A DNA stretch of 64,000 bases from Candidatus Woesearchaeota archaeon. GTDB taxonomy: Archaea > Nanobdellota > Nanobdellia > Woesearchaeales > UBA583. Of this stretch, positions 24,835 to 50,560 are shown piece by piece. The notes under the pieces are model-generated. The model saw only the letters and a program-made list of their open reading frames with translations, did no database searches and had not been told where the DNA came from. The first letter of the stretch is position 1, and each line of letters starts with the position of its first letter. The DNA is taken from NCBI GenBank assembly GCA_965205335.1, contig OZ242164.1, positions 416,046 through 480,045 on the forward strand. Direction: 5' to 3'. The position numbers and the translations under genes were made by a program.

Positions 24835-24845
24835 AATACTTAATA

Positions 24846-26720: not shown

Positions 26721-26751
26721 AATGCTCATATACTGAAAATAGATGTGAGAC

Positions 26752-28608: not shown

Positions 28609-28616
28609 TTTATAAA
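28609..28616 (-). promoter_or_regulatory. TATA box TTTATAAA upstream of aspS
   Basis: Palindromic TTTATAAA 30 nt from the aspS ATG at 28578. Separated by 6 nt from the MITE target duplication. Confidence 0.5.
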
Positions 28617-28630
28617 TATTTGTGGTAATT

Positions 28631-28758
28631 GGCTCTGTCCGAAAATTCAAGAGAACTTAAAATGTTATATAAATAAAGCAATTTTTGACAAATATTTTTT
28701 TTCTTTGATTGAATATAGTTAGCATAAATTTTGGAAAAAACAATTTTCGGACAGAGCC
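28631..28758 (+). mobile_element. MITE copy 1 (128 bp), 17-bp TIR GGCTCTGTCCGAAAATT, 8-bp TSD TGGTAATT
   Basis: Identical to the copy at 50411-50538. Perfect terminal inverted repeats. TGGTAATT is present on both flanks (28623-28630 and 28759-28766). Confidence 0.9.
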
Positions 28759-28827
28759 TGGTAATTAGTTCTATAACAGAACCACAGAATAGAAATCTTT
28801 TTAAATAGAAAAATTTGGAAGTAACGT

Positions 28828-29307
28828 ATGGCAAATTTTAGCGAAACACCACTTATGGAGATTATACTTCGCAGATACGAAAATCCTAAGGGATTATCCG
28901 AGCGCAACTCCATAAAAAAAATATGTTTATCACTTGGTCTGCTACAACCAGGAGACTCCCGTGACGTTATTGTTGATATTCTAATGGTTTTAGAAAGAGC
29001 CAAAAAAGATAAAAAAGAACTTAGCATCATCGAAATAAAAGATGAACTGCTTGAAATCAGAAGAAACGGCGGGCTTTCCTTAAACGGAACTGCGGACTCT
29101 AATATAAGAAGACAAATCAAAAGACTAAGAGGCGTTTTCCTTGTTGAAAAAATCAAAAATAAATACAGAATACTTGAATTTATGAGTTTATCAGACATTT
29201 TTGAGCAAAAAATTAAAAAAATTATTCTCGATGCAATATTAAAAAGAAGTGAAGAGTATTTAAAATACTACAAAAAATTTGAGTCAAGAGGAAGAAAAAA
29301 TGGATAA
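28828..29307 (+). CDS. winged-helix-like DNA-binding protein (putative regulator)
   Basis: 159 aa. The pattern SRDVIVDILMVL...LSIIEIKDEL...IRRQIKRL...LVEKI..KYRI is suggestive of a wHTH fold. Confidence 0.4.
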   Translation: MANFSETPLMEIILRRYENPKGLSERNSIKKICLSLGLLQPGDSRDVIVDILMVLERAKKDKKELSIIEIKDELLEIRRNGGLSLNGTADSNIRRQIKRLRGVFLVEKIKNKYRILEFMSLSDIFEQKIKKIILDAILKRSEEYLKYYKKFESRGRKNG

Positions 29308-30181
29308 AAGCAAAATATTTATTGGTGTTTTATTATTAATAGGGCTGGTTTTCGCAGGATGTTCACACAATCAAGAAGTAAGAACCAGTGGAATTCCAAG
29401 TATAGGAAGAGCCTCATCTAGCAGTAATAGTGGAGTAGTTTTAGAATTTGGAGAAGCTATGAACAATATACAGCCTCAGAAAGGACAACCATTTAGCATG
29501 ATACTAAACATGAAAAACTACCAGAGACACGAAATTGACAATCTGGAAATTAGGGTCTTTGGATTTGACACTGGCTATTTAAATTCTCAATTAGATAGAG
29601 ATGAGAGTTTAGGACCTGCAACAGATAGCGGTCATGTAATCAAAGCCTTGATTTATGAGAATGTTGTTTTAGATGGATTTGAAGGGGATTATAGTTGGAA
29701 TCCTGTATTCAAGTACTGTTATGAGGCAAAAACTCAGTTCAGAGAACAATTATGTATCCCAAACAAATTAGGACAAAAATGTGAAAATGAAGTGGGTTCA
29801 AACATTTTTTCAAACGGACCTTTGGGAGTGAAAATAGAATCAGTATTCCCAATTGGTGAAAGTGAGATAGGAATCGAGATTATGGTCTCAGACATCCTGT
29901 CAGGAAACGTTGTAAACGAATGCTTTGAAGACACAAACATAAATCCTTTTGGAAGCCTAAGCAATCCTCCTGCTGTAAGTTTAGGTTCTCAAGATGGTGA
30001 CTGCATCCCAACTTCATCCGACGACTACGTTATCACAAACGACATTTTAAAATACAGATGCACCTTTTCAAGAAATTCAGATGAGCCATATACCTCACAA
30101 ATCACAGTTAGAATGGATTACACCTACCAACAGGAAATAAGAAAGAAAATTGTAATACGTGACTTAGAATATGGCAGATAA
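29300..30181 (+). CDS. lipobox-bearing secreted protein, paralogue of 18313-19299
   Basis: Start chosen at MDKSKIFIGVLLLIGLVFAGC (lipobox LVFAGC). The track ORF begins at 29279. Confidence 0.55.
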   Translation: MDKSKIFIGVLLLIGLVFAGCSHNQEVRTSGIPSIGRASSSSNSGVVLEFGEAMNNIQPQKGQPFSMILNMKNYQRHEIDNLEIRVFGFDTGYLNSQLDRDESLGPATDSGHVIKALIYENVVLDGFEGDYSWNPVFKYCYEAKTQFREQLCIPNKLGQKCENEVGSNIFSNGPLGVKIESVFPIGESEIGIEIMVSDILSGNVVNECFEDTNINPFGSLSNPPAVSLGSQDGDCIPTSSDDYVITNDILKYRCTFSRNSDEPYTSQITVRMDYTYQQEIRKKIVIRDLEYGR

Positions 30182-30520
30182 ATGAGAATCAATAAAAATA
30201 GAATAATAGGACTTGTGGAAACTATTGTTTTGGAAAACAATAAAGAATTCAAAGCAAAAATAGATACAGGAGCTGACTCAAGTTCTATTGACTCAAACCT
30301 TTTAAAAAACCTAAGTGAAAAAAAAGTAGAATCATACAAAACAGTAAAATCTGCATTAGGCAAGTCACAAAGACCAACAATCAGACTAGAATTTAACTTT
30401 CATGGCGTCTCTTTCTCTGAAAGATTCACAATATCAGACAGAAGCAACCTAAGATATAAAATATTAATCGGAAAGGATATTCTAAGAAAGGGCAACTTTC
30501 TAATAAACCCAAACAAATAA
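30182..30520 (+). CDS. retropepsin-like aspartic protease domain protein (DUF785 / RimB-like family)
   Basis: 112 aa. AKIDTGADSSSID (DTGA active-site motif) and RYKILIGKDILRKGNFLINP tail. Confidence 0.7.
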   Translation: MRINKNRIIGLVETIVLENNKEFKAKIDTGADSSSIDSNLLKNLSEKKVESYKTVKSALGKSQRPTIRLEFNFHGVSFSERFTISDRSNLRYKILIGKDILRKGNFLINPNK

Positions 30521-30760
30521 ATTTCTAAACATTACTAATCTGCTCTCTTCTCCTCATTGAATTTTACTTCTAATGCAAACTTATAGTACATCTAAGACTT
30601 AATCCCAAATAACTTCTAAGTCATCATTTTAGAAACTCTCAAGTTATTTGGCAAATTAAAGAGATTGCTAAGTATTTTGAAAGTTTGTAGACAACATTAT
30701 TTTAACGAAAAAGAGTACATCTCTTTCTTTATTGAAGGAGTTTTAGAGTAAACAATGGTT

Positions 30761-31399
30761 TTATTTCTCTGCAACACATTCAACAAAATAAGATTTAATA
30801 AGCCCTTCTTCCATCGTTAAATGTTTTGATGAAGTATTTCTTAGTTTAATTATACTAAATTTATTCATTAGATTCTGTAAATACTCCCTAGAGAATAAAT
30901 GATATTCCTTTCCTTCGTAAACATAAAAATCATTTTCAACTTTATCTCCTTTTTGACATAGCAGGTCCTTTGTGGATTTACACTTTATAAAAATATATCC
31001 TCCTTTTTTTAGTAATTTGTGTAAATTATCAAAGATCATTATTGTTTCTTTATTTTTAAAATAGTGTAAGCTTAAATTTGCATAAATAATATCAAAACTG
31101 TTATCTTCAAAATCGATTTGTTTGATATCTTTGACTATTGGTGTTATGTTTTTCAGATTTATTTTTTTAAAGCGTTCATGAAGCATAGTTATAGCACTTT
31201 CTGAGAAATCAATGGCCGTCACATGAAAACCTCTTTTGGCAAAGTAAATTGAATCTTTCCCATCACCACATCCCAAATCTAATACTGTTTTAAATTCTTT
31301 TTCTTTGATTATTTTAAAGCTTTTTTTAGCAAAATTGGTTGTAGAAGTTTTATTTTGAATTTCACTCCATTTTTTATTCCAAAAATTTTTTTTCTCCAT
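30761..31399 (-). CDS. class I SAM-dependent methyltransferase
   Basis: VLDLGCGDGKDSIYFAKRG motif I, plus a DIIYANLSLHY post-I region. Confidence 0.8.
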   Translation of the reverse strand: MEKKNFWNKKWSEIQNKTSTTNFAKKSFKIIKEKEFKTVLDLGCGDGKDSIYFAKRGFHVTAIDFSESAITMLHERFKKINLKNITPIVKDIKQIDFEDNSFDIIYANLSLHYFKNKETIMIFDNLHKLLKKGGYIFIKCKSTKDLLCQKGDKVENDFYVYEGKEYHLFSREYLQNLMNKFSIIKLRNTSSKHLTMEEGLIKSYFVECVAEK

Positions 31400-31536
31400 A
31401 AATTACTTTGATAGATAAAATATTTATAAATTTTCTTAGTTTTTTATAAAAGTTATAATAAAAGTCCTAAAACTGCTGTTAACTTACCAGCCCAAATTTC
31501 CAATAAATTTAAAAACTATAATTCAGAGAATATCTT

Positions 31537-32598
31537 ATGATTAACTTAAGAACATATGGATTAAACCACATCTACTATGATGAGAACATAGACAACTTTT
31601 CAAACGTAGCCGTAGGACTTACCATAAGAGCCCTAGGACATGGACTAAAAATTGCATACATTGACTGTTCAAACACTGCAAGCAAATTCACAAACTTCTT
31701 GGAAAACCTATCACTCTCAAGATCATTTATAAAAAAATTTGACAGATTTCTAATTGATATATACAGATTCAAATCAGACCAAATAATGTCAAAAGCAATT
31801 CTTCCATTAGTAGAATTTACAAACATCCCCCACCGTATGTTCTGGAAAGAAATTAACTCATATGACTTAGTAGTATTTGACAAATGTAATTTTAGCTGCA
31901 TCCCTAAACTCAAAATAATTAACCTTCTCAATAACAAACCCAAAAATACAGAAATAGTTTTCGTTCTGGAGAACAAAAAAGAATTTGATGAAATTAATCC
32001 TCAATTTGACTTAATAACACGCTACAAATACACAAAGAAAAATACAATTATCTCAAAATCCAATATCTTAAATATAACAGGCAATGGCAAAGGAAAATCC
32101 ACATATTGCTTTGGAATGATCATAAGAGCTTACTTGAATAAAGAAGATGTAAGACTTATTTACTTTGATAAAGGGGGAGATTTCTACGGAGAAAGATACT
32201 TCTTTGATCCCTTAAAAAAATGGGCAAAAGAAAATACTCTTTACGGTAGATTTGACTATGTGGCAACAGGATGCAAAAGATTTGATGGTATATCTTTTAG
32301 ATTTGAAAACCACAAAGAAGATAAAAAAGAAGCAAAAGAAGGCTTAATGCTACTTAGAACTGCCCTAAAAAAACAAACACCAGTCATAGCCGAAGAATTG
32401 AACACAACAATAAAAACCAATCTGCTTGAAAAAAAAGAAGTATTAGATGTCTTAAAAAGTGTTGTCAATAAACTAATTATCACAGGAAGATACTCTCCAA
32501 AGGAATTTTTAGAACTCTCAAACCAGATTATTGAGGTAGAAGAAATAAAACATTATAGTAAACTTGGACACAGCGTCCGCAAGGGAATTGACTTTTAA
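31537..32598 (+). CDS. tandem CobA/CobO/BtuR-like P-loop protein; N-terminal half lacks the P-loop
   Basis: Second half has NITGNGKGKSTYCFGMIIRA...IITGRYSPKEF...VEEIKHYSKLGHSVRKGIDF. First half keeps VAVGLTIRALGHGLKIAYID and DLVVFDK but has no GKGK(S/T). Confidence 0.65.
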   Translation: MINLRTYGLNHIYYDENIDNFSNVAVGLTIRALGHGLKIAYIDCSNTASKFTNFLENLSLSRSFIKKFDRFLIDIYRFKSDQIMSKAILPLVEFTNIPHRMFWKEINSYDLVVFDKCNFSCIPKLKIINLLNNKPKNTEIVFVLENKKEFDEINPQFDLITRYKYTKKNTIISKSNILNITGNGKGKSTYCFGMIIRAYLNKEDVRLIYFDKGGDFYGERYFFDPLKKWAKENTLYGRFDYVATGCKRFDGISFRFENHKEDKKEAKEGLMLLRTALKKQTPVIAEELNTTIKTNLLEKKEVLDVLKSVVNKLIITGRYSPKEFLELSNQIIEVEEIKHYSKLGHSVRKGIDF

Positions 32599-32656
32599 GT
32601 TCTTCACTTTTTAGGAAATATAAACAATTATATAGATTTCAAAAATAATATAAGGT

Positions 32657-33328
32657 ATGGGTTTATTTAGCAAACATAAAAGTCAAGAAAGTACGCCACC
32701 TAAGGAACCTGAAGCACCTAAAGAAGATGTTCAAACAAAGGAATCTCAAATGTCCTCTAACATGCCAGAAGTCCCACAAGGTGCTAATTTATCTCCTCCT
32801 CCACTTCCAGGGAGTTCTTCTTTAGATGGAATCAAATCAGAAGTCGCCCCGATGTCTCCTGATTCACAGGTGCCTCAAAATAATTCGAATGATGGGCAAG
32901 TTCAAAATCCTCTGGAAAATCAGATGGACTCAGGTTCTTCTGATGATGAACTATTTAGCATGTTTGATATTGACACTCCACTCGATAGTAATTCATCAGA
33001 AACATCTCAGGACAATAAGGATTTATTGGAAGATATAGACAATAAAACGTCTGAAATGGAACAACCATCAGAATTATCCTTTGTCAAATCTCATAGAGAA
33101 ACAAACCCTCTAAGCATTAACTCTAAATTTCTGACAACTTCCCAATTCAAAGCAATGCTCGAGTTAGTTGAAGGAGTAAAATCAAAAGTTAGGGACTCAA
33201 CTGAAACTTACACAAGATTAATGGATATCAGATCTGAGGAAGACATAGAGTATGAAAACCTAAAAAAGAGTTTTCAGTTCATTGAGGATAAATTGTATGA
33301 ATTAGATAACATCTTATTTGAGAAATAA
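32657..33328 (+). CDS. acidic low-complexity protein with C-terminal coiled coil
   Basis: 223 aa. The N-terminal Pro/Ser/Glu-rich region looks disordered. The C-terminal 90 aa have heptad character. Confidence 0.45.
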   Translation: MGLFSKHKSQESTPPKEPEAPKEDVQTKESQMSSNMPEVPQGANLSPPPLPGSSSLDGIKSEVAPMSPDSQVPQNNSNDGQVQNPLENQMDSGSSDDELFSMFDIDTPLDSNSSETSQDNKDLLEDIDNKTSEMEQPSELSFVKSHRETNPLSINSKFLTTSQFKAMLELVEGVKSKVRDSTETYTRLMDIRSEEDIEYENLKKSFQFIEDKLYELDNILFEK

Positions 33329-33339
33329 AGAGGATTAAA

Positions 33340-33546
33340 ATGAAAAACAGAAGAGATATATTTGTAAAACTTAACAATACCTCTGAAATAGTTAAAGTTA
33401 TGAAAGAAATCAGAGCAGAAGAGAAATCCTTAAAAGAATTATTTGCCAAATACGATAAATTAAATGAACTAGAAAACAAAGCTTGTGAAAACTGGAGAGA
33501 TCGTATGGAAGAAACATTTAGAAGGATGGAGAACATTTCTTTATAA
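33340..33546 (+). CDS. small coiled-coil protein
   Basis: 68 aa. The IFVKLNN...coiled segment resembles the start of the C-terminal module in the two flanking genes. Confidence 0.4.
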   Translation: MKNRRDIFVKLNNTSEIVKVMKEIRAEEKSLKELFAKYDKLNELENKACENWRDRMEETFRRMENISL

Positions 33547-33549
33547 ACT

Positions 33550-34065
33550 ATGGTAGTCAAAACGCAAAACAATAATGAGAACTTGTATGTATCAATGGAC
33601 AGTTTCAAAGAAAAAAGAAGAAATTTGCTCTTCTCTCTCAAAGATTCCTTGATTTTACAAGAAGAATACGAAAAAGTCACAGAAATTCGAGAGCAGAAAG
33701 AAGAAGTTATCACACAAATCAAAAAGAAAATGAACGATATAAATTCATCTTATCAGAAACTAAAGAAATTATTTCCAAATGTTAAAGGTGTTATAACAAA
33801 CGCTGAGAAAGAACTATCTACACTTGACAGGCATTTTACAACACTTACACCTCAAGATAAGAAAGAACATGAAAAAGTTCAAAAGAATACTACGAAGAGC
33901 ACTAATACCCCAAGAAAACAAAAGCATACAACCAACAAAAATGAAATAAAGGCTACAGGTTATGTTTCTGAAAAAGCATCAGAGAAGATTAAAGAAGATA
34001 TTAGTAAACTTGATAGAATTAGAAATAACCTAAGGGTAATTGAATCCAAACTAAAAAAAGCATAA
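33550..34065 (+). CDS. coiled-coil protein with basic central region
   Basis: 171 aa. LYVSMDSFKEKRRNLLFSLKD followed by heptad-rich sequence. Confidence 0.45.
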   Translation: MVVKTQNNNENLYVSMDSFKEKRRNLLFSLKDSLILQEEYEKVTEIREQKEEVITQIKKKMNDINSSYQKLKKLFPNVKGVITNAEKELSTLDRHFTTLTPQDKKEHEKVQKNTTKSTNTPRKQKHTTNKNEIKATGYVSEKASEKIKEDISKLDRIRNNLRVIESKLKKA

Positions 34066-34075
34066 ATCTATTATA

Positions 34076-34693
34076 CTACTTCTTTTTCTGGTTTTTCTCA
34101 TTGCCTAGTTCCTCTAAAATCTCCTTAGAATTAATATACTTATAAAATACCATAATCACAATTATGAAAACTGCAAACATAATCACTCCATAATATCCAA
34201 ATTTTTCCCATGATTTTCCAAAATAATATCCAATACAAGAAAATATACTTGCCCAGATTCCAGATGCAATTAGAACTATTACAAAAAATTTTATCCTATT
34301 CATTTTAGAAATTCCTGCTGGAATTGGGATGAAAATCTTAATTGGATTAACTAATTTGCCAACAAACAAAAAAAAAGAGCCCCTTTTCCTAAAAGCTATT
34401 TGAATCTTCTTAATCTCCTGTCTTGGATTTAGAACATCTAAAAACTTAAATAACTTCAATGAATAATCCAATCCCTTTCTTCGTGATATCTCATACAATA
34501 TAAGATTTCCAAGAGATTGTGCAACAGCCCCCACTCCAATAACAAGAAACAAATTTAAATCCCCTGTTGATGCAAAATAACCTGCAAATATATAAACTAA
34601 TTGGCTTGACGGAAAACTAATCACTCCATTTAAAGTAATTAGAATAAAAATTCCAAAATAAGTAAGTGAAACGATTATTTCTTCTAAAGACAT
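34076..34693 (-). CDS. dedA: DedA / SNARE-associated (VTT domain) membrane protein
   Basis: 205 aa. FPSSQLVYIFAGYFA...GNLILYEISRRKG pattern of the DedA family. Confidence 0.75.
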   Translation of the reverse strand: MSLEEIIVSLTYFGIFILITLNGVISFPSSQLVYIFAGYFASTGDLNLFLVIGVGAVAQSLGNLILYEISRRKGLDYSLKLFKFLDVLNPRQEIKKIQIAFRKRGSFFLFVGKLVNPIKIFIPIPAGISKMNRIKFFVIVLIASGIWASIFSCIGYYFGKSWEKFGYYGVIMFAVFIIVIMVFYKYINSKEILEELGNEKNQKKK

Positions 34694-34696
34694 CTT

Positions 34697-34987
34697 TTAT
34701 GCATGATTTTGCAATCTCTTTGACTCCTTTATAATCAAATTAAAAACCTCTTCTGTGAACTTTCTATCAAGTTTATAAATATTAATAAGTACTGAACGCA
34801 TCCTCTTCATCTCATTCTCTCTTATTTTATCTATTGTCTTCTCAAACCCCATTTGGTCCTTAATATTACCTATCTGCTTTGCTACCTTCAATCTCTTACC
34901 AAGCAGATATAATATCTTAGAATCCAATTTATCTATCTTCTTTCTCAATTTTCTAAGTTTTGCTTCCATATTATTTGGATAAAACAA
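34697..34987 (-). CDS. chorismate mutase, AroQ class
   Basis: LRKLRKKIDKLDSKILYLLGKRLKVAKQIGNIK...IRENEM matches the AroQ helical motif. The true start may be M7. Confidence 0.75.
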   Translation of the reverse strand: MFYPNNMEAKLRKLRKKIDKLDSKILYLLGKRLKVAKQIGNIKDQMGFEKTIDKIRENEMKRMRSVLINIYKLDRKFTEEVFNLIIKESKRLQNHA

Positions 34988-35022
34988 AAGTATTTAAATC
35001 TTATGAATGCCTATTCTATTAA

Positions 35023-35982
35023 ATGTTAGAAACAAGCCAAATTTGGGTAGATAAATACAGACCTCAAACATTTAACGAAATCATTGGACAAGATTACTTT
35101 GTAAAAAGAGTTAAGGCATTCATTAACTCAAAATCCCTACCTCACCTATTATTTACAGGAGCTCCTGGGACTGGAAAGACCACAACCGCCTTAGTTGTCG
35201 CAAGAGAATTATATGGAAAAAATGGAACAACAGGAAATTTCTTAGAACTTAACGCCTCAGACGATCGTGGTATTGATGTCATTCGTAATCAAATCAAAGA
35301 ATTTGCTAAATTAAAGTCCCTTGCTGATGTTCCATATAAAATTATTTGCTTGGACGAGGCAGATTCTCTAACAAAAGATGCCCAGCAGGCCCTTAGGAGG
35401 ACAATGGAGAAATACTCATCATCATGCAGATTCATTCTATCATGTAACGAACTTGCAAAGATTTTAGACCCTATCCAAAGCAGATGCGTTATTTTTAGAT
35501 TTAAGAGTCTTGATGAAAAATCCTTACATACTCTACTCTCTAAAATTGAAAAAAAAGAGAAATTAAATATCGATAAAAACGCAAAAAATCTCTTAGTTGA
35601 GATTTCGCGTGGTGATGTAAGACGCTTATTAAACACCTTACAGGCAGCGGCCTCTATTAATACAAAAGTTAGTTTGAAACTAATTAATGAAATAATTGAC
35701 TTTGTAAACCCAAAAGAAATAGAAGATATGATTAACTATGCAGTTTCAGGTGACTTCTTTAAAGCACGTGACATAATGATTAAACTCAGAACTTTAAAGG
35801 GCTTATCCTCTCTTGAAATACTAAAAGAGATATACAGAAGAATCCTTGACATGGAAATTGAAGCTAAACTAAAAATTAAATTTGTTGATAGAATAGCAAC
35901 AGTTGAATTTAGATTAGTTGAGGGCTCTGATGAAGAACTACAATTAGAATCATTGCTTGCAATGATGTCTCTTCTAAAATAA
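35023..35982 (+). CDS. rfcS: replication factor C small subunit
   Basis: WVDKYRPQTFNEIIGQ, GAPGTGKTT, DEADSLT, SRC motifs. 319 aa. Confidence 0.95.
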   Translation: MLETSQIWVDKYRPQTFNEIIGQDYFVKRVKAFINSKSLPHLLFTGAPGTGKTTTALVVARELYGKNGTTGNFLELNASDDRGIDVIRNQIKEFAKLKSLADVPYKIICLDEADSLTKDAQQALRRTMEKYSSSCRFILSCNELAKILDPIQSRCVIFRFKSLDEKSLHTLLSKIEKKEKLNIDKNAKNLLVEISRGDVRRLLNTLQAAASINTKVSLKLINEIIDFVNPKEIEDMINYAVSGDFFKARDIMIKLRTLKGLSSLEILKEIYRRILDMEIEAKLKIKFVDRIATVEFRLVEGSDEELQLESLLAMMSLLK

Positions 35983-36175
35983 TCCAACTATACAATTAAT
36001 TACTATATTAACGTCATATTCATAAAAATCCATCCAAATTACCCATATTCCTAGTAAATTGGCGTAATGGAAACTAGAAAATTTTCTTTCTTAGACACCT
36101 GTACTATAAAAATATGAGACTTTAATTGCTAAAAAAGATATATTAGTTACTCATTAGTAATTAATTTCCGAAACC

Positions 36176-36183
36176 TTTATAAA
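36176..36183 (+). promoter_or_regulatory. TATA box TTTATAAA upstream of the 514-aa surface protein gene, implying a leader of about 50 nt
   Basis: Exact motif 72 nt upstream of ATG 36256. This is unlike the 22-nt spacing at most genes here. Confidence 0.45.
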
Positions 36184-36203
36184 TAACTATGTACTTATCA
36201 TAA

Positions 36204-36248
36204 TTACAAATGTGCTAATCGTCACTCAATGATGGTTAGCATTTGTAA
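36204..36248 (+). promoter_or_regulatory. 5' leader hairpin (14-bp stem with one bulge, 17-nt loop)
   Basis: TTACAAATG(T)GCTAA ... TTAGCATTTGTAA. Begins about where transcription from the TATA box at 36176 would start and ends 7 nt before the ATG. Confidence 0.45.
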
Positions 36249-36255
36249 CTAAAAA

Positions 36256-37800: not shown

Positions 37801-38050
37801 ATATTCCTTTTCAGATTTTCTCTAAAATCTTTACAAAGCAAACATAAGTTTCTAAATTACAGATAATACTTTATGAAACTTGCTATAACTATTGTTCTAC
37901 TACCTTAATCCATGCAATCTTGCTAAATATTGCAATTGCTGATTCAATTTAACTAAAATCAATTCTAACAATAACCTAAAATATATTTAAAACTAATGCA
38001 GTTAAATATTATAATTGGACAATCCTTAAGAATAATTAGGTAACATCAGA

Positions 38051-38637
38051 ATGAAACTAAATTGGGATAAAACAAAAAAAATCTATTTACATCGCTACTA
38101 TTTATAACACTATATATTCCCTTTTCCTTTGCGATATACTCAAGTTCTTGGTATGAATTTAACTATGAAATATACAGAACATATGAACTTATAGGGAAAG
38201 AAAACACAATTAATGCAACAGAGAACTTAATCTCTTACTTTACACACAAAAACGAGTTAAATCATATGTGGAATAACAAAGAAAAAGCCCATATGAGTGA
38301 AGTCAGAACAATCTTTGACATACTACTCATAACCTTTATCCTCTCTCTTGTAAGCCTTCTCTTTCTAATTAACAAAAATAAAAACACAATAAGAAAATTT
38401 TCAAAAACAAACATTAAAATAATCCTATCACTTCTAATAATTCTACCTTTCTTTACAATATTCTGGCATGCCTTCCATGAAATCCATTTTATAAACAACC
38501 TATAGATAATAAAGTATGATGACATATCTTACTACTTATTTCCTCAGAAATTCCTTAGAAACACAATTCTACTAATAATACTAATAGGAGCATCAATAAA
38601 TCTAACAATAAATTACACTATAAAATTATCTAAATGA
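38051..38637 (+). pseudogene. DUF1461 / TIGR01906-like integral membrane protein gene, disrupted by a frameshift at an A8 tract and an in-frame TAG
   Basis: ATG 38051 reads MKLNWDKTKK, then the frame is lost at A8 (38074-38081). The adjacent frame continues NLFTSLLFITLYIPF...EKAHMSEVRTIFD...FHEIHFINNL, TAG (38503-38505), IIKYDDISYYLFPQKF... to TGA 38635-38637. Family assignment is from recall. Confidence 0.5.
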
Positions 38638-40647: not shown

Positions 40648-41039
40648 TTTTCAAGCGAATTAATCTTATATTTTTCCTCTCTAGAACCACATGCCAAACT
40701 TCCATCAAAAGTCAATATAACAGGGTTTAAATGAACAGAAGATGAACTCGTTTTAATAGACACCCTCCCAAGTGATCTGGAGAACACCTTCTGAACATTT
40801 TCTTTATCCTCACTAAACACAAAATCAATATCAGAATCACCATTATTTTTAATATGAACTTCCATTCCTTCAGGGGTTTTGCAATATTTAGTGATTTCAT
40901 AGTTCAAAAGATTACATCTCTCTAGCTCAGGAACGTATAATCTACCAAGAATTGCATGCAATATCAAAGCAATAATAAACGATGCAATCGCAAGTACAAG
41001 AATATACATTGAAACTCCCTTTTTACATTCAAGTTGCAT
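40641..41039 (-). CDS. small pilin-like protein
   Basis: 132 aa. N-terminus MQLECKKGVSMYILVLAIASFIIALIL. Overlaps the next gene by 7 nt. Confidence 0.55.
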   Translation of the reverse strand: MQLECKKGVSMYILVLAIASFIIALILHAILGRLYVPELERCNLLNYEITKYCKTPEGMEVHIKNNGDSDIDFVFSEDKENVQKVFSRSLGRVSIKTSSSSVHLNPVILTFDGSLACGSREEKYKINSLEKC

Positions 41040-41181
41040 AATGAGGTTCTACAAAAGAATAATATAAAGATTTGTCCTATTCCCAAAGTAAACACAATAA
41101 AAAACTAAAGATTCATTTATGCATCCAATAAACACATTGCATCCATATTATTCCCCAGAGGATTAAAATCCAACACATTAA

Positions 41182-43938: not shown

Positions 43939-44486
43939 TTTTTCTCTTTCTTTGATCTTATGAAAAGAGGTTTAAATACCATAATTACAATAACCAAAAT
44001 CATCAGATAAAACAAATAAGTAACATAATTAAACTTCTTACTCTTAGTTATCTCAACCTTGAAATTCTCAATTTCATCCTTTGAAATGGATTTCTTTATT
44101 GTATAATTTATTATGTGTGGGGGCCTTTCAACATGCCATGCAATAAGAGGATCTGATTCCAAAATTGCATAATCTTTCTCGCTCTCTATGAATTCCTCTC
44201 TATTCTCATATGTCAATTCCTCAATAACACTCTTTGGAATTCTATGTGAAACATCAACAGGGTCTTCTGAATAAGGTACATGAATTGAAACTTCAGTTCT
44301 ATCTTCAAAAAACTCAAAATTCGGATCCAAAGAATCATCAGTAAACTCACCTGAAACATCATCCACTGTCCTAGAACTATTACTCACCTTAGTTACAAAA
44401 AACACAGAAACAGAAACCAGAACTATAAGACATAATATCATAATAACTACGACATTCAAAGACGAAGACTGAGAATTTCTTTCCAT
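43935..44486 (-). CDS. membrane protein with pilin-like N-terminus and C-terminal TM helix
   Basis: 183 aa. MERNSQSSSLNVVVIMILCLIVLV (compare RNSQ in the 911-aa protein). C-terminal YLFYLMILVIVIMVF. 4-nt overlap with the next gene. Confidence 0.55.
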   Translation of the reverse strand: MERNSQSSSLNVVVIMILCLIVLVSVSVFFVTKVSNSSRTVDDVSGEFTDDSLDPNFEFFEDRTEVSIHVPYSEDPVDVSHRIPKSVIEELTYENREEFIESEKDYAILESDPLIAWHVERPPHIINYTIKKSISKDEIENFKVEITKSKKFNYVTYLFYLMILVIVIMVFKPLFIRSKKEKK

Positions 44487-44509
44487 TTATTAAACAGACA
44501 CAAAAATCT

Positions 44510-44517
44510 TTTATAAA
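44510..44517 (-). promoter_or_regulatory. TATA box TTTATAAA for the pilin-like operon
   Basis: 23 nt from ATG 44486. 6 nt from the MITE target duplication at 44524-44531. Confidence 0.55.
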
Positions 44518-44531
44518 ATTTTGTCTTCACA

Positions 44532-44658
44532 GGCTCTGTCCGAAAATTCAAGAGAACTTAAAATGTTATATAAATAAAGCAATTTTTGACAAATATTTTT
44601 TTCTTTGATTGAATATAGTTAGCATAAATTTTGGAAAAAACAATTTTCGGACAGAGCC
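44532..44658 (+). mobile_element. MITE copy 2 (127 bp; one T fewer in the internal T-run)
   Basis: Same 17-bp TIRs. TCTTCACA lies on the left flank (44524-44531) and on the right flank at 44661-44668, after two extra C residues. Confidence 0.9.
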
Positions 44659-44672
44659 CCTCTTCACAAACT

Positions 44673-44680
44673 TTTATAAA
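44673..44680 (+). promoter_or_regulatory. TATA box TTTATAAA upstream of the Nudix gene
   Basis: Exact motif 34 nt before ATG 44715 and 28 nt before TTG 44709. Confidence 0.45.
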
Positions 44681-44714
44681 TTAAATCCTACTACATAAAA
44701 ATAAGGCTTTGAAG

Positions 44715-45197
44715 ATGACGCAATTTAGCTACAGAGAAAATGTAGCCGCCATCATCATTAATAAAGATAAAAAAGTTCTTATGTGTGAACACGCATGGAT
44801 TGACGATGCTTGGCAGTTACCTCAAGGAGGAATAGAAGAAAACGAGACAGAAGAAGAAACTCTTCTAAGAGAACTATGGGAAGAACTTGGAACCAAAAAA
44901 TTCAAGATTCTTAAAAGAATGGATGCTAAAATTAAATATCTGCTTCCTTTTTACCTAAGAGAAAAATACGGATTATCAGGACAAGAACAGAAATATTTTC
45001 TTGTATATTTTTACGGAAAAGATGAAGAAATCCGTTTTAACAATCAGGAAAAACCTGAATTCAAAGCATTTAAATGGGTTGAATACAACAAACCTCCAAT
45101 CAAAGTAATTTACTTTAAAAAATTAGCATATATGAAAGCATTGGATTACTTCAAAGAATACGTTGAAAAACTAGACATTAAATCAATCAAAACTTGA
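44715..45197 (+). CDS. Nudix hydrolase (RppH/NudH-like)
   Basis: Nudix box GGIEENETEEETLLRELWEELGT. ATG 44715 is preferred over the TTG at 44709 used by the ORF track. Confidence 0.85.
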   Translation: MTQFSYRENVAAIIINKDKKVLMCEHAWIDDAWQLPQGGIEENETEEETLLRELWEELGTKKFKILKRMDAKIKYLLPFYLREKYGLSGQEQKYFLVYFYGKDEEIRFNNQEKPEFKAFKWVEYNKPPIKVIYFKKLAYMKALDYFKEYVEKLDIKSIKT

Positions 45198-45245
45198 AAT
45201 CTCCATCAAAACCAAACATTTAGTTCCTTTATCTCCACTGACTTT

Positions 45246-46031
45246 CTAACTTTCATCATCAGGGAAGTGATTTGCATTAATAATTGTCCAAGAACCCAAA
45301 CCTGCTACAAGTGTTTCAAGTTTATCTTCTGATACTTGAAGTTCACCTTGTGAATTAAACCTATCTATTTTATATGAAATTGTAAGTTCTGCTTTCAGAG
45401 ATTCTTTTATCTCTGGCTTTGTTGTATCCGCTATCTCAAACTCCTTCTTTCTAAAAGTATATCCCTGTCCCTGAGTAACCTCTTGATTATAAATAATCTC
45501 TGCAAACTCAATTGAATTGGAATTTATTATTATAAGACTCTTAACTGTCAAATCCTTTATTTCTGCCCTTTTAGCTATCTGTTTAAAATATTCCAGTTCA
45601 ACACCAATCTTATTATCATCTTCTGAGTTAATTATAAAAGGAACATTAATAATGAAATCTCCTTTAAAGTGTACATCCGAATTCTTAAAATCAATGGATT
45701 TTTTCTGAGGCACAACCTTATCGTTCTGTTTTAGAACACATTCATCATTATCAGAACACATCTTCTCTAAATAATCTCCCTTAGTTCCCTCACATCCAAG
45801 AACAGGATGACTCTCTGGCACATCATTTGGACAAGAACAATAATTTTCCCCATCCTCAGGAATACCATTTCCGCATACATTCCTCTCAATTTTCTTTGCA
45901 ACACACTCTCCATCCACTTCCGAATACTTCTCATACGTTGTATCAAGAGTAGAACAATCAACATCTGAACAACCCGCAAGAACAAGAACACCACAAAACA
46001 AAAAAACAAAAAAGATATTCTTATTAATCAT
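45246..46031 (-). CDS. lipobox-bearing secreted Cys-rich protein
   Basis: Start taken at MINKNIFFVFLFCGVLVLAGC (lipobox VLAGC). The track start 46043 is a TTG codon. Confidence 0.5.
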   Translation of the reverse strand: MINKNIFFVFLFCGVLVLAGCSDVDCSTLDTTYEKYSEVDGECVAKKIERNVCGNGIPEDGENYCSCPNDVPESHPVLGCEGTKGDYLEKMCSDNDECVLKQNDKVVPQKKSIDFKNSDVHFKGDFIINVPFIINSEDDNKIGVELEYFKQIAKRAEIKDLTVKSLIIINSNSIEFAEIIYNQEVTQGQGYTFRKKEFEIADTTKPEIKESLKAELTISYKIDRFNSQGELQVSEDKLETLVAGLGSWTIINANHFPDDES

Positions 46032-46032
46032 C

Positions 46033-46614
46033 TTAAATCTCAACTTTAACAGTTACAACCTCTGAGTATTTAATTTCGCCAATTACAACAGTGAGAGTAA
46101 CAAAACAATTTCCTGGACTGGTATCAGATCCTTCTACAGCTCTCACAATAAGAGGATAACTATCTACCTCTCCAGATTCCATATTAGGAAACCCCCCCAA
46201 AACACTAATCACTGCAGGTATACATGTAGCAGGAGTAGCACCCCCATCCGAAACAGAATAGGTAAAATGACCCCCACCACCACTACTTTTAATTTGAGCA
46301 GCAACAAGTTCATTTGCTCCTGAATTCAAAATTTTAAAGAAAAACTTTTCTCCATCAGGATTTCCTATTTTTAGAGTTACCTCTGATGGTACTACTACAA
46401 AGTTTCCAGATTCCTGTTTAACTTTTTTCAACTGCACTTCTTCTTGTTCTGTCAACCGTTTATCAAGATCACCTTTTGCATCTTCTAAAAAACCCGTAAC
46501 AAAGGCAATCACTAGTCCCATAATCACTAAACCAATTATCAACATAATAATCAAATTCAAACTTAACTCCACTGCTCCCTTTTTACTTTTTCTTCCTATC
46601 TGTTCCCTTATCAT
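46033..46614 (-). CDS. pilin-like protein (class III signal peptide)
   Basis: 193 aa. SKKGAVELSLNLIIMLIIGLVIMGLVIAFV N-terminus followed by a beta-rich domain. Confidence 0.6.
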   Translation of the reverse strand: MIREQIGRKSKKGAVELSLNLIIMLIIGLVIMGLVIAFVTGFLEDAKGDLDKRLTEQEEVQLKKVKQESGNFVVVPSEVTLKIGNPDGEKFFFKILNSGANELVAAQIKSSGGGGHFTYSVSDGGATPATCIPAVISVLGGFPNMESGEVDSYPLIVRAVEGSDTSPGNCFVTLTVVIGEIKYSEVVTVKVEI

Positions 46615-46787
46615 ACTCTTCCTTTTATTCTCTTTACTTAAAAAGGTTTTTTATTTTCGAATAATAGTAACAAGTCAAACTATGAAGGTTATTCAACTAT
46701 CTTCCAAATACAAACTAAAAAATATAATATCCTCCACACATATAAATTCAATCTGAACTCTCAAACAGAACTAATAACTAACAAAAC

Positions 46788-47723
46788 TGTGCAGTAAAGT
46801 AGCATATGCTACCATATAAAATTAGAATTTTTCTAATTTTTATGAAAAAAGAACATTTACGCCGTGAATTCATAAAGTTAAAATGTAAGTATTCGTACTC
46901 TAAATGTCAAATACTTTTAGAGAAAAAGTTCAGTAGAACTTTTCATATTTCAACATTAAAGCGTTGGTATAAACGATTTAATGATGGAATTTGGAATTTT
47001 CAAGACAAATCTAAAATCCCTAATAAAGTTTATTACAAAGTAACTCAAGAAGCTGAAAAAGAGATAATTGAGTTACGTAATAAAACTGGTTGGGGAGCAC
47101 TAAAGCTAAAGCAAAAGATTAAATCTGTTCAATTATCTCATACTACAATCAATAAAGTTCTAAAACGTAATGGTTTAACTCGTAAAGAACATAATCGTGG
47201 GCAAAGAGCTAAATACGTTCGTTTCGAACGTAAACACTCAAATTCACTTTGGCATATTGATGACAGTGAATTTGGGGAAAAAGGTAAAATAATTGCAGTC
47301 ATTGATGATGCCACTCGTTATTGTTTAGGTATTTTACACGTTCCAACTGTTACAACACCAATTGTAACACAGTTTCTTGATAATTTAATCAAGAAATTTG
47401 GAAATCCTAATCAAATAATCAGTGACAATGGAGCACCATATGGACTCACAAGTAAGAAGTCTAAGTTTGATAAATGGTGTCAAAGAAGAGGGATTAAGCA
47501 CATTAGAACTAGAGTTAACCGTCCTCAAACAAATGGAAAAGTGGAACGTTTGTTTGGAACAATTGACAGAGAAATTAGGTATTGCAACAATGATTTAGAG
47601 TTATTTAGATATAGATACAATGCTTTTAGGCCTCATGAGAGCTTATTTGGTCAGACTCCTTCTTATGAGTTTGACAACTTTCAGAGAAAGTTGAGGTGGT
47701 GACATATGTCACTGCACTACACA
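46788..47723 (+). mobile_element. IS481-family-like insertion sequence, copy A (chimeric; degenerate right end)
   Basis: Left end TGTGCAGTAAAGTAGCATATGCTACCA. Right end GGTGACATATGTCACTGCACTACACA. A 15-bp duplication AATAACTAACAAAAC flanks it at 46773-46787 and at 47724-47737 plus C 47874, the right copy being split by a MITE. Confidence 0.8.
46806..47702 (+). CDS. IS481-like DDE (rve) transposase
   Basis: 298 aa. LWHIDDSEF...VIDDATRYC, IISDNGAPYG, RPQTNGKVERLFGTI. Confidence 0.85.
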   Translation: MLPYKIRIFLIFMKKEHLRREFIKLKCKYSYSKCQILLEKKFSRTFHISTLKRWYKRFNDGIWNFQDKSKIPNKVYYKVTQEAEKEIIELRNKTGWGALKLKQKIKSVQLSHTTINKVLKRNGLTRKEHNRGQRAKYVRFERKHSNSLWHIDDSEFGEKGKIIAVIDDATRYCLGILHVPTVTTPIVTQFLDNLIKKFGNPNQIISDNGAPYGLTSKKSKFDKWCQRRGIKHIRTRVNRPQTNGKVERLFGTIDREIRYCNNDLELFRYRYNAFRPHESLFGQTPSYEFDNFQRKLRW

Positions 47724-47737
47724 AATAACTAACAAAA

Positions 47738-47865
47738 GGCTCTGTCCGAAAATTGTTTTTTCCAAAATTTATGCTAACTATATTCAATCAAAGAAAAAAA
47801 ATATTTGTCAAAAATTGCTTTATTTATATAACATTTTAAGTTCTCTTGAATTTTCGGACAGAGCC
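47738..47865 (-). mobile_element. MITE copy 3 (128 bp, inverted orientation), TSD TAACAAAA
   Basis: Reverse complement is identical to copy 1. TAACAAAA at 47730-47737 and 47866-47873. Confidence 0.9.
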
Positions 47866-47879
47866 TAACAAAACTTAAA

Positions 47880-47887
47880 TTTATAAA
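47880..47887 (+). promoter_or_regulatory. TATA box TTTATAAA, 22 nt upstream of ATG 47910
   Basis: Exact motif, 6 nt after the MITE TSD. Confidence 0.55.
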
Positions 47888-47909
47888 CAAATAAACACCC
47901 TGAAAATAT

Positions 47910-50387
47910 ATGAAAAAGTTAATACTAACTATCCTGCTAACTCTTTGCCTAACCTCAATTGGATTTGCCTTTGAAGTACTTGATGAAAACAACAAAGCAA
48001 GAACTTACTTCTCAAACAATGAACCCCAAATCTACATAAAAACACCCAAAAACATCTCACATATAACACTTGAATATACTAAAAACGAAACAACATACGA
48101 AAAAAACTATTCCCTAAACTCCTGCGATAACTCATACTGCGTTAGTTTCTCACTAATAAACTTTCTAACAAGCAAATCCCTCCCTATCAAAAGTGGAGAA
48201 TTCGCAATATCATCAGATTCCCAATCAAAAACAATTTACTTAGATGCAGACCCTCCTAAATTTAACATAACAAATCACACAATAAACAACAAAACAAAAG
48301 AACTAAAAATACAATTCAACTACTCAGACAACTACAAAATCTCAAAAATTGAACTATATGATGTCTCAGGTTCTAAAGAAACACCCATAAAAAACCTGAC
48401 ATCACAAAAATCATACTCCCAGAAAGTATCACAAATAGGGCTTATCAAACTAAGATTCAAAACATACGATACATCAGGAAACATTAACACATACGATGAA
48501 ATATTCTCAATAAACGACATATTTGAGCCAGAAATTGAAAAAACCCTTCTAATCCTAAAAGATGACTCATACTCTTTATACTTCAAAATATCAGACGATG
48601 ACTTACAATCATACAGAATCATCCAAAAAGACTTGCAAATAGAAGGAGAAATTAGAGGTGAAACATATGAAAACACAATCTCACTGCCATACAACGAAGG
48701 AACAGCAAAACTTGCAGTTTACGATGAACATTCAAACACTAAAACCAAATCAATATCTCTAAAATCATCAATCTCAAACTCATACGAAGAAAAATACTCA
48801 AACAAAGACATATTCACAGTTAAATCAAACGCAGACAAATGCATCCTGACAAAAATAGACTCAAGACAAAAAAATACAGAACTCTCAAAATCAGGAAGAA
48901 ACTTTGAAATTGATTTATCCCTAAGCAGGACCCAACCATATGATTTAGAATTCTACTGTGAAGATGACAAAATAAGAGAATACTTCACAAGAGAATTTTA
49001 CTATGACACAGAAGAACCGGAGAATACTGTTCTTGAAATAGAACAAACAAACACAGGAAACCTAAAACTTTATTGGGACAGCGCATCAGACAGACAAGGA
49101 GATGTCAAATACATCCTCTACAAAGAAGACAAAGACGGTGATGGCGATGACATTTACGATGGAACTAAAACCTCATACACTGACAAAAACGTAAATTACC
49201 CCCAAGAATACACCTATTACCTAAGAGTTTTAGACGAGGCAGGAAACAGTGTTAGAACAAACAAAATATCACAAACCCCTCTGAAAGTAAACATAAATCT
49301 AAAAACAAGCCTTGAAAAAGATATAACCACAAAAGAAAACACATATACCTTTAACATTGAAACAGAAAACGAAACAACAACACACATAACCGTTAAAAAT
49401 TCCGGAAAAACACTATTTGAAAACACAACTCAAAAATCAAAGAGTTCACATAAAATACCTCTTGAAAAGGGAATCAACGAAATCATAATCAAAATAAAAG
49501 ATAGTTTTAACAACACAAAAGAAGAATCATACTTTATAACATACGAAGAACCATTAATTAAACTAAAATCCACAATTAACAACAATTACATCAATAATAC
49601 GAATAACAACTCTCAATTAGAAGATAAAAAAGTAGAAGACAACCAAAAAAAACACCTATGGTATGTAATAATTTTCTCATTAATTGCTCTGGGAATATTC
49701 ATATGGTATTTCATATTTAACGAAAGCAGAATAAGAAAAAGAAGTATGAAACCTATGCAAAATTATGTGGGAAAAAAAGATGTAAATCGCAGACATGATA
49801 AAGTACTATCAAGACATATTGAACAGATTAGAAGAAACCGAAAAGAAAAAGAAGATGAGATAATAAAGCAAAAGAAAAAAGAAGAAATAAAAGAACACAG
49901 AAAGATTTTAGACTTAGAAAAAGAAAAAATGTCAGACTTGCAATCACACAGAACAGACATAGACTTTGAAACAGGAAATCTCAAAAGAGAACCAAAAAAA
50001 GAGATTCCCGATAATAAAACCAAAAAATCGTTTTGGACAGCATTTTCAAGAAAACCCAAGGAAAAAATTAGAAATGATCCATTTTCAAGATATTTACAAG
50101 AACAACACTCAGCAAAAAGTTGGGATTCTCCTAACCATTACAGAAAGGCTTACTTTGACAAACTAAAAGCACAAGAAGAACAAAAGAAAAAAGAACAGGA
50201 AGAAGAAAAAAAATTAAAACAACTTGACATTGAAGAAGAAAAAATAAAACATGCCAAGCCAAAGGAAATAAAAGAACATAGAAAAAACACATTATCACTT
50301 GACGAATATCTAAACAAAAGAACTAAGAAAAGAAAATTCTTCTTTGCTGACAGAGAAGTGGACAGAGACATCAGAAGAAGAAAGTAA
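47910..50387 (+). CDS. large surface protein: signal peptide, Ig/FN3-like ectodomains, one TM helix, Lys/Glu-rich cytoplasmic tail
   Basis: 825 aa. LKLYWDSASDRQGDVKYILYKE...YTYYLRVLDEAGN is FN3-like. TM helix is LWYVIIFSLIALGIFIWYFIF. Confidence 0.55.
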   Translation: MKKLILTILLTLCLTSIGFAFEVLDENNKARTYFSNNEPQIYIKTPKNISHITLEYTKNETTYEKNYSLNSCDNSYCVSFSLINFLTSKSLPIKSGEFAISSDSQSKTIYLDADPPKFNITNHTINNKTKELKIQFNYSDNYKISKIELYDVSGSKETPIKNLTSQKSYSQKVSQIGLIKLRFKTYDTSGNINTYDEIFSINDIFEPEIEKTLLILKDDSYSLYFKISDDDLQSYRIIQKDLQIEGEIRGETYENTISLPYNEGTAKLAVYDEHSNTKTKSISLKSSISNSYEEKYSNKDIFTVKSNADKCILTKIDSRQKNTELSKSGRNFEIDLSLSRTQPYDLEFYCEDDKIREYFTREFYYDTEEPENTVLEIEQTNTGNLKLYWDSASDRQGDVKYILYKEDKDGDGDDIYDGTKTSYTDKNVNYPQEYTYYLRVLDEAGNSVRTNKISQTPLKVNINLKTSLEKDITTKENTYTFNIETENETTTHITVKNSGKTLFENTTQKSKSSHKIPLEKGINEIIIKIKDSFNNTKEESYFITYEEPLIKLKSTINNNYINNTNNNSQLEDKKVEDNQKKHLWYVIIFSLIALGIFIWYFIFNESRIRKRSMKPMQNYVGKKDVNRRHDKVLSRHIEQIRRNRKEKEDEIIKQKKKEEIKEHRKILDLEKEKMSDLQSHRTDIDFETGNLKREPKKEIPDNKTKKSFWTAFSRKPKEKIRNDPFSRYLQEQHSAKSWDSPNHYRKAYFDKLKAQEEQKKKEQEEEKKLKQLDIEEEKIKHAKPKEIKEHRKNTLSLDEYLNKRTKKRKFFFADREVDRDIRRRK

Positions 50388-50410
50388 ATCTTCATCTCTG
50401 CTAAACAAAG

Positions 50411-50538
50411 GGCTCTGTCCGAAAATTCAAGAGAACTTAAAATGTTATATAAATAAAGCAATTTTTGACAAATATTTTTTTTCTTTGATTGAATATAGTT
50501 AGCATAAATTTTGGAAAAAACAATTTTCGGACAGAGCC
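50411..50538 (+). mobile_element. MITE copy 4 (128 bp), TSD AAACAAAG
   Basis: Identical to copy 1. AAACAAAG at 50403-50410 and 50539-50546. Confidence 0.9.
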
Positions 50539-50552
50539 AAACAAAGATAAAT

Positions 50553-50560
50553 TTTATAAA
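50553..50560 (+). promoter_or_regulatory. TATA box TTTATAAA, 22 nt upstream of ATG 50583 (atpH)
   Basis: Exact motif, 6 nt after the MITE TSD. Confidence 0.55.

Follow-up and report, generated by a model that had tools for sequence, protein, structure and literature searches.

Why should all four copies of a small transposable element in one stretch of archaeal DNA lie at the same distance, to the nucleotide, from a TATA box? This question is raised by a 64,000-nt stretch of contig OZ242164.1 of Candidatus Woesearchaeota archaeon (positions 416,046 to 480,045; hereafter "the window", to which all counts for the source genome refer). The element is a miniature inverted-repeat transposable element (MITE) of 127–128 bp with perfect 17-bp terminal inverted repeats (GGCTCTGTCCGAAAATT) and no meaningful open reading frame (ORF). 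Copies 1, 3 and 4 are identical over 128 bp and copy 2 is shorter by one T. Eight instances of the terminal 17-mer, forming four inverted pairs, are present in the window where 0.14 would be expected, and a scan of the window found no MITE ends beyond these four pairs.

Position of the MITE copies relative to the TATA box

The four copies are bounded by four different 8-bp target-site duplications (TSDs; script check), and in every case one TSD copy is followed by exactly 6 nt (N6) and then by the palindrome TTTATAAA (Table 1). The original prediction, made from the letters of this stretch, had given the coordinates, TSDs, N6 spacers and TATA boxes of the four copies, and both direct reading and a script found them all correct.

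The window has a G+C content of 32% and a coding density of ~88%. TTTATAAA occurs in it 28 times, where 9.9 occurrences are expected, and at least 13 of the 28 lie 21–30 nt upstream of a start codon. This over-representation and spacing identify TTTATAAA as the TATA box of leaderless-type promoters, and the 6 nt adjoining it are the position of the transcription factor B recognition element (BRE). In structures of archaeal complexes of TATA-binding protein (TBP), transcription factor B (TFB) and DNA, the DNA bends sharply and TFB contacts ~6–7 bp on the upstream side of the TATA box. A single palindromic TTTATAAA at 1990-1997 is 21 nt away from a start on the plus strand and 25 nt from one on the minus strand, and is apparently one box for two divergent genes.

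As a null model we took the 8-bp target positions in the intergenic DNA of the reconstructed empty window. Forty of 6912 such positions lie N6 from an exact TTTATAAA, which gives p = 0.0058 per insertion and p = 1.1e-9 for four; when the null is limited to positions at most 30 nt from a TATA box, the values are p = 0.042 per insertion and p = 3e-6 for four. Chance is excluded as the cause of the register in the window. Comparison with random intergenic placement was one of the checks that the original prediction had proposed for itself; two more, empty sites in related strains and TSD-to-TATA distances in other genomes, likewise came out in its favour, as described in the next two sections.

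Empty sites in related strains

A 15-kb contig of a related strain in ENA (L041), reached via a homologue of an insertion sequence (IS) transposase of the window, is collinear with window 40.6–53.6 kb at 87–99.6% identity, and the alignments break exactly at the MITE borders. It carries exact empty sites with a single target copy at site 4 (...CTCTGCT AAACAAAG ATAAAT TTTATAAA) and at site 2 (TTTATAAA ATTTTG TCTTCACA AACT TTTATAAA), and has no MITE at site 3. Two other strain contigs (L232 and L233), found through members of the AspRS cluster, have no MITE at site 1, where the spacer has diverged. The MITE insertions in the window are real and recent. Since the empty sites carry target, N6 and TATA box, the promoters are older than the insertions and the elements landed beside them; the idea that TATA box and N6 travel with the element was rejected because both are already present there.

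Site 2 has two features beyond those listed in the original prediction, an additional CC and a second TTTATAAA. The two extra bases (CC, 44659-44660) lie between copy 2 and its right TSD, and these were added at or after insertion because the empty site of L041 lacks them. Owing to the CC, the TATA box of a divergent NUDIX gene lies 14 nt from the element, such that copy 2 has an end 14 nt from a TATA box on both sides. Extra bases between element end and TSD also occur in an IS element of the window (ISb, CC, 56997-56998) and in MITE relatives L152 (GA, 6949-6950) and L212 (T, 5985). A review of the IS6 family describes an extra GG at an IS26 tip in Tn4352B (PMC7986276), to which the CC bases may or may not be related.

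The register in other genomes

To find relatives in reference genomes we used the 11-bp tips only (the end pair GGCTCTGTCCG...CGGACAGAGCC) in two size classes, with no TATA box in the pattern. This search yielded 18 further archaeal copies in 14 metagenome-assembled genomes (MAGs) assigned to Woesearchaeota, Pacearchaeota, Nanoarchaeota and archaeon GW2011_AR19, with several labelled Methanosarcinales (one of 63–65% G+C). The pooled set thus comprises 22 copies with 44 flanks in 15 genomes, and distances in it were measured from the element end and are hence independent of TSD calls. Among the 44 flanks, 8-mers with at most one mismatch to TTTATAAA were found eight times at 14 nt, seven times at 15 nt and once at 13 nt, where ~0.4 are expected at 14–15 nt, and each of the remaining positions from 0 to 44 has at most one. 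Counted by copy, a TATA box lies 13–15 nt from one element end in 15 of 22 copies with at most one mismatch and in 21 of 22 with at most two.

Elements with an 8-bp TSD end 14 nt from the TATA box and those with a 9-bp TSD end 15 nt from it, with N6 constant in both. The N6 offset was found in 21 of the 22 copies, allowing up to two TATA mismatches and, in a few copies, a shift of up to 2 nt. A start codon lies 22–30 nt past the TATA box in eight of ten MITE sites tested and 48 nt past it in a ninth. The free space upstream ranges from ~0 nt (1 nt in L153; overlap with the upstream stop codon in L165) over 15 nt (window copy 4) and 74 nt to 246 nt (L152) and 433 nt (L143), with the offset unchanged.

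One MAG labelled Methanosarcinales (CAYUKJ01, 63–65% G+C) holds five copies of the MITE family (L179, L183, L186, L212 and L221), each by an AT-rich TATA-like box. The Methanosarcinales label of this MAG, and of the other MAGs so labelled that carry DPANN-type elements (L036, L039, L165, L190 and L230), looks doubtful. Searches with longer patterns added no copies: the exact 17-mer end gave single chance matches in reference genomes, none of them archaeal, and the full MITE pattern had no match in JGI metagenomes. Five matches of the 17-mer in viral contigs all fall in one conserved viral coding sequence and were dismissed as chance.

IS481-like elements with a similar register

The window also contains two IS481-like elements, ISa and ISb. 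The best NCBIfam match of their transposases is IS481 (NF033577) at 198–199 bits, below the curated cutoff of 224, with IS3 next at 72–82 bits. Other IS481 traits are present, namely a single rve-type ORF, TGT...ACA inverted ends and long flanking TSDs. Transposases of this group (~285–298 aa) consist of HTH_32, rve and rve_3 and show no further domain that would obviously serve in targeting. The first ~445 nt of ISa and ISb are identical, whereas the remainder is only ~75% identical and the right ends differ; the pair looks as if two IS species had undergone recombination or gene conversion.

The TSD edge of ISa lies 5 nt from the TATA box at 47880 that serves an 825-aa gene, and ISb stands before tRNA-Trp in the order IS end, CC, CCTCAGAGAAG, TTAGA, TTTATAAA. 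IS relatives were taken from reference genomes and metagenomes, and their ends were located by regular expression. Among 60 unique flanks, TATA-like 8-mers lie at 20 nt from the IS end in 11 cases and at 21 nt in seven (~0.7 expected at 20–21 nt), and every other position has 0–2; the TATA box may face either end. All confirmed TSD pairs (15, 15, 15, 15, 16, 15 and 11 bp) stop 5 nt from the TATA box, and this register of an 11–16 bp duplication, 5 nt (N5) and TATA box extends across ~35 contigs. A gene start follows the TATA box within ~55 nt in ~16 of the 22 IS flanks that are in register. The simple end finder missed the termini of more divergent IS481-like loci (L068-L121, 30–38% identity), and these were left out of the scoring.

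The promoter of the 825-aa gene brings the two element types together. MITE copy 3 lies within the right-hand TSD copy of ISa and splits it, having inserted there later. In L041, two different IS copies stand in tandem (reverse complement 7544-9477, orientation opposite to ISa). One 15-nt target is present there three times, between the IS copies and on either side of them, and the last of the three target copies lies 5 nt from the TATA box of the same gene. This promoter has thus received ISa (N5), MITE copy 3 (N6) and, in L041, two other IS copies (N5), and in all at least three IS insertions and one MITE insertion. Further tandems are found in L052 (IS elements) and L179 (MITEs). Such repeated insertions at one promoter suggest that the attraction persists after the first insertion.

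Table 1. Coordinates of the elements, their duplications and the adjoining promoters in the window
Feature	Positions	Strand	Details
MITE copy 1	28631-28758	+	128 bp; TSD TGGTAATT 28623-28630 and 28759-28766
aspS promoter	28609-28622	-	TATA TTTATAAA 28609-28616; N6 (BRE position) 28617-28622; start codon 30 nt beyond TATA
MITE copy 2	44532-44658	+	127 bp; TSD TCTTCACA 44524-44531 and 44661-44668
Promoter of 183-aa gene (starts 44486)	44510-44523	-	TATA TTTATAAA 44510-44517; N6 44518-44523
Second TTTATAAA at site 2, TATA of divergent NUDIX gene	44673-44680	+	4 nt from right TSD
ISa	46788-47723	+	IS481-like; 298-aa rve/HTH_32 transposase 46806-47702
ISa TSD	46773-46787 and 47724-47737 plus 47874		AATAACTAACAAAAC, 15 bp; second copy split by MITE copy 3
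MITE copy 3	47738-47865	-	128 bp; inverted relative to copies 1, 2 and 4; TSD TAACAAAA 47730-47737 and 47866-47873
Promoter of 825-aa gene	47874-47887	+	N6 47874-47879; TATA TTTATAAA 47880-47887; ATG 22 nt downstream
MITE copy 4	50411-50538	+	128 bp; TSD AAACAAAG 50403-50410 and 50539-50546
Promoter of small ORF before V/A-ATPase subunit I gene	50547-50560	+	N6 50547-50552; TATA TTTATAAA 50553-50560; ATG 22 nt downstream (script count)
ISb	56073-56996	+	IS481-like; 294-aa transposase 56091-56975; 27-bp perfect ends TGTGCAGTAAAGTAGCATATGCTACCA
ISb TSD	56062-56072 and 56999-57009		CCTCAGAGAAG; extra CC 56997-56998
tRNA-Trp promoter	57010-57022	+	N5 57010-57014 (TTAGA); TATA TTTATAAA 57015-57022; tRNA-Trp 57056-57129

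What guides the insertion

Insertion is targeted relative to the TATA box. This was the central claim of the original prediction; it holds for the window and is replicated in 14 other genomes. In-register insertions always place the element on the BRE side of an intact promoter, which could reflect either a directional cue or the elimination of those insertions that separated the TATA box from the start site.

We propose that the MITEs are recently active non-autonomous DNA transposons that would be moved by a DDE-type transposase whose choice of target is not random. This enzyme would cut with a stagger of 8 or 9 bp and make the cut nearer to the TATA box 6 bp upstream of that box, where the BRE has its upstream edge, and the IS481-like element would behave in the same way with a stagger of 11–16 bp and an offset of 5 bp. 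The feature read may be the promoter as occupied and bent by TBP and TFB. The preferred strand-transfer site would then be the first accessible DNA at the upstream border of the TBP-TFB complex, which is where the cuts would fall given the reach of the TFB contacts described above. In a very compact genome, such a promoter-side site might serve as a safe landing place that spares genes and promoters alike.

Guidance by the TBP/TFB-bound, bent promoter is the explanation that we favour over direct readout of BRE and TATA box, and we give it roughly an even chance of being right. It is favoured because two unrelated transposases share their boundary to within 1 bp, which points to a host complex or a structural cue. 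Somewhat short of even is our confidence in the wider proposition that the TBP-TFB-bound promoter recruits archaeal DNA transposases or sets their position. Transposition guided by a host transcription factor would then be described for the first time in Archaea; it would have arisen by convergence in two or more unrelated element families of DPANN and other archaea, and would mirror Ty3 and TFIIIB in yeast.

Possible, but in our judgement clearly less probable, is that each transposase or target-capture complex recognises the sequence or deformability of BRE and TATA box without TBP and TFB and cuts at a fixed distance. When 21 MITE targets are aligned on the TATA box, information is found only in the TATA box itself, in A-A at positions −4/−3 and in C/A at −7. 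Uninserted promoters of the window show the same A-A and C/A pattern, there is no extra transposase-specific motif in the MITE targets, and the pattern fits what we take to be the archaeal BRE consensus. A TATA box with a conserved A-rich N5 or N6 could be read by a DNA-binding surface, the tolerated TATA variants are close to the consensus, and sequence- or structure-specific target choice is common in prokaryotic transposons such as IS608, IS30 and REP-targeting IS elements. However, two unrelated elements with different ends and staggers would need to have acquired the same specificity and a boundary equal to within 1 bp, and the minimal IS481-like transposase has no obvious domain for it. 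In the host of 63–65% G+C, moreover, the targets follow the host TATA variants TTTTTATA, TATAAAAA and TTTTTAAA, and bacterial elements with the same tips as the MITE duplicate TA and show no TATA association.

Several points weigh against guidance by the promoter complex. Direct transposase readout of BRE and TATA box would predict an identical sequence pattern, and selection may contribute to the restriction to the BRE side, given that an insertion between TATA box and start site would inactivate the gene downstream. The distal cut at site 2 lies within the BRE position of the divergent neighbour promoter, and a strict rule that an occupied complex blocks insertion therefore cannot apply to the two promoters simultaneously. 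No TATA-like sequence lies in register in one of the 22 MITE copies (L219, the sole such copy) or in five IS copies (L033, L054, L055, L056 and L060). Finally, no transposase gene bounded by MITE ends was found in the window or in the fetched archaeal loci.

Selection and element function

Because the target is duplicated on insertion, the integrity of the promoter depends on the DNA kept between the element end and the TATA box. The length of this DNA is 14 or 15 nt in the MITEs and 16–21 nt in the IS elements, while the TATA-proximal TSD edge is fixed at 6 or 5 nt. The fixed edge, the variable length of kept DNA, the 0–433 nt of free space, the re-use of targets and the unrelated nature of the genes together argue that neither selection alone nor selection for a function of the element ends produced the register.

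Selection alone would mean that elements inserted nearly at random in a compact genome and survived only just upstream of an intact BRE and TATA box. The high coding density (~88%), the tiny free space at L153, L165 and window copy 4, and the fact that insertions between TATA box and start site are surely purged are all in keeping with this. Nevertheless, the offset stays at exactly 6 nt at sites that had 74, 246 or 433 nt of free space, the promoter-side DNA retained varies over 14–21 nt across elements with the TSD edge constant, independent insertions re-used identical targets, and uniform placement fails in the window alone even close to TATA boxes (the 3e-6 given above). We therefore regard selection as a very improbable sole cause. 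Of the three options that the original prediction had offered, purifying selection alone is thus disfavoured by the free space, the varying retained DNA and the re-used targets, and the other two survive at different strengths: recruitment by the TBP/TFB-bound promoter is about evenly poised, and recognition of the TATA box or of bent DNA is a good deal less probable.

Equally improbable is that the terminal repeats carry a regulatory site useful only at a fixed distance from the TATA box and that such copies were positively selected: the ends are identical, making orientation irrelevant, and copy 2 with its CC offers the same spacing to two promoters, but an IS family with unrelated ends stands at a distance other than that of the MITEs, the promoters concerned belong to unrelated genes (aspS, NUDIX, an ATPase operon, a tRNA and others), and the near-identity of the window copies implies very recent insertion with little time for repeated positive selection. 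The original prediction had reasoned from the variable orientation of the copies that the insertion site and not an element end is positioned. With identical 17-bp ends, variable orientation in fact leaves a role of the element end open, but the conclusion stands on other grounds, since relatives with 9-bp TSDs keep N6 and have their ends 15 and not 14 nt from the TATA box.

Family of the MITE and search for an autonomous partner

The IS6 family is characterised by GG tips, cTGTt and caaa motifs and an 8-bp duplication (PMC7986276). The MITE resembles IS6 elements (IS26) in its GG tips, its CTGT motif and the 8-bp duplication seen in the window, but GGCTCTGTCCGAAAATT has gaaa instead of caaa, and the duplication, invariant in IS6, is 9 bp (once 10 bp) in most archaeal relatives. 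The same tips are also found on bacterial elements that duplicate TA. Elements with the tip GGCTCTGTCCG in Planctomycetota, a Bacteroidetes MAG, Polyangiaceae and a Paceibacterota MAG all duplicate TA and have no TATA association. These bacterial families (L122-L168, L175-L231) are multi-copy MITEs of 120–170 bp that stand in a cTA...TAg context, and the shared tips point to a widespread cross-domain family of ends. Subgroups of IS5 have duplications of 2–3 bp (TA/TNA) or of 8–9 bp. The MITE shares its 11–15 nt tips with bacterial MITEs that duplicate TA, a duplication also made by some IS5 groups, and an ancestry in the IS5 superfamily is at least as likely as one in IS6. To our knowledge, neither IS6 nor IS5 is known for TATA-registered insertion.

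A TATA-like sequence, TTATATAAAT, lies inside the MITE (window 28664-28673 and the same position in the other copies); it may be a remnant of the promoter of a parent transposase or a source of outward or inward transcription.

No DDE_Tnp_IS240 transposase gene with MITE ends is present in the window. Several candidates for a larger partner were rejected. Pairs of ends 0.5–2.6 kb apart in the fetched archaeal loci are chance matches inside coding genes (e.g. a radical-SAM gene in L219). What looked like a second element is, in L174, a remnant of 19 nt next to a gene for tRNA-guanine transglycosylase and, in L179, a degenerate tandem MITE adjoining a cysteine-synthase-like gene. The DDE_Tnp_IS240 (IS6-family) gene of L232 (17117-17989) has no MITE ends and no clear inverted repeats; it is preceded by several GGTACTTAA-like repeats. 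Tip-pattern matches in Verrucomicrobia, Chloroflexota and Terriglobia are longer palindromic repeats with different true ends.

Other features of the window

The gene names used in the original prediction were sustained in part: aspS is correct, and the small ORF called atpH does stand next to the gene for V/A-ATPase subunit I, but the 183-aa protein described as pilin-like has no Pfam match. The AspRS of the window is of the bacterial type with a GAD domain, and its closest relatives (at most 77% identity) are in Woesearchaeota, Nanoarchaeia and other DPANN MAGs; the contig that carries it measures 1,199,749 bp.

Between aspS and a 74-aa gene lies a strain-specific segment of 3.6 kb (23167-26765; GIY-YIG protein and ORFs of 75, 181 and 583 aa). 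This spot is variable, being 92 nt in L232 and occupied in L233 by a different 1.1-kb insert with a 294-aa gene, which is not a member of the IS481-like family. A sequence at 23235-23251 resembles a MITE end with three mismatches; it is not a MITE and lies inside the strain-specific segment.

A 911-aa gene on the minus strand (52741-55476) contains tandem coding repeats, with eight 75-nt units at 52766-53565 and 144/153-nt units at 53895-54906. Its repeat region differs from that of strain L041, and the product is probably a surface protein of repetitive sequence. Within a 211-aa ORF (57260-57895), a perfect tandem repeat of 18 nt (ATTAAAAACTGAAGAAGT) occupies 57370-57439.

Known systems and implications

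The phenomenon is a sharp and widespread case of target-selective, safe-haven transposition. The original prediction had known of no archaeal element with such a register, and our full-text literature searches bear this out, having found no description of TATA- or promoter-registered insertion in archaea and no report of position-specific integration next to transcription initiation complexes for DNA transposons of archaea or bacteria. Neither TATA nor promoter nor target site comes up in a survey of archaeal insertion sequences from 2026, and TATA is likewise absent from a census of prokaryotic MITEs from 2024.

Eukaryotic retroelements that live in compact genomes are the textbook case of position-specific integration beside initiation complexes. 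Among the closest analogues, all of them eukaryotic, is Ty3 of budding yeast, whose integration sites are Pol III promoters occupied by TFIIIB. In both cases the position is fixed to the nucleotide relative to a promoter bound (putatively so here) by TBP and a TFIIB-family factor, insertion finds a safe haven in a compact genome and, for the IS481-like transposase, the catalytic fold is rve, that of retroviral integrases. The differences are that Ty3 targets the point where transcription of Pol III genes starts, whereas the elements described here are archaeal DNA transposons and are found, at protein-coding and tRNA genes alike, upstream of the TATA box on its BRE side. Dictyostelium TRE5-A and DGLT-A and yeast Ty1 also take set positions upstream of tRNA genes in gene-dense genomes, with unrelated elements converging on them, but they do so at tens of bp with spread or nucleosomal periodicity, compared with 5–6 bp and almost no spread here, and by other enzymes in another domain of life.

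Among prokaryotic elements, Tn7 with TnsD at attTn7, the REP-targeting IS1397 and ISPpu9 and the hot spots of IS30 likewise involve DDE or related transposases and insert with precise position while sparing genes. Those elements use one site or one repeat family, whereas the target here is the generic archaeal BRE and TATA box found at a large share of transcription units. The classical target of IS481 is a short palindrome, in contrast to the promoter-relative position of ISa and ISb.

If guidance by the promoter is confirmed, Archaea would be shown to have come independently to safe-haven targeting of basal promoters; their TBP and TFB are homologous to the factors that Ty3 exploits. A 128-bp element with a readout precise to a single base would provide a simple system for learning how a DDE transposase reads a TBP/TFB-DNA complex or the BRE and TATA box themselves, and might open a route to promoter-proximal, gene-sparing insertion tools for archaeal genetics. 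In uncultivated DPANN archaea the elements would act as free in vivo markers of functional promoters, and their choice of target would explain how very small genomes tolerate active transposons.

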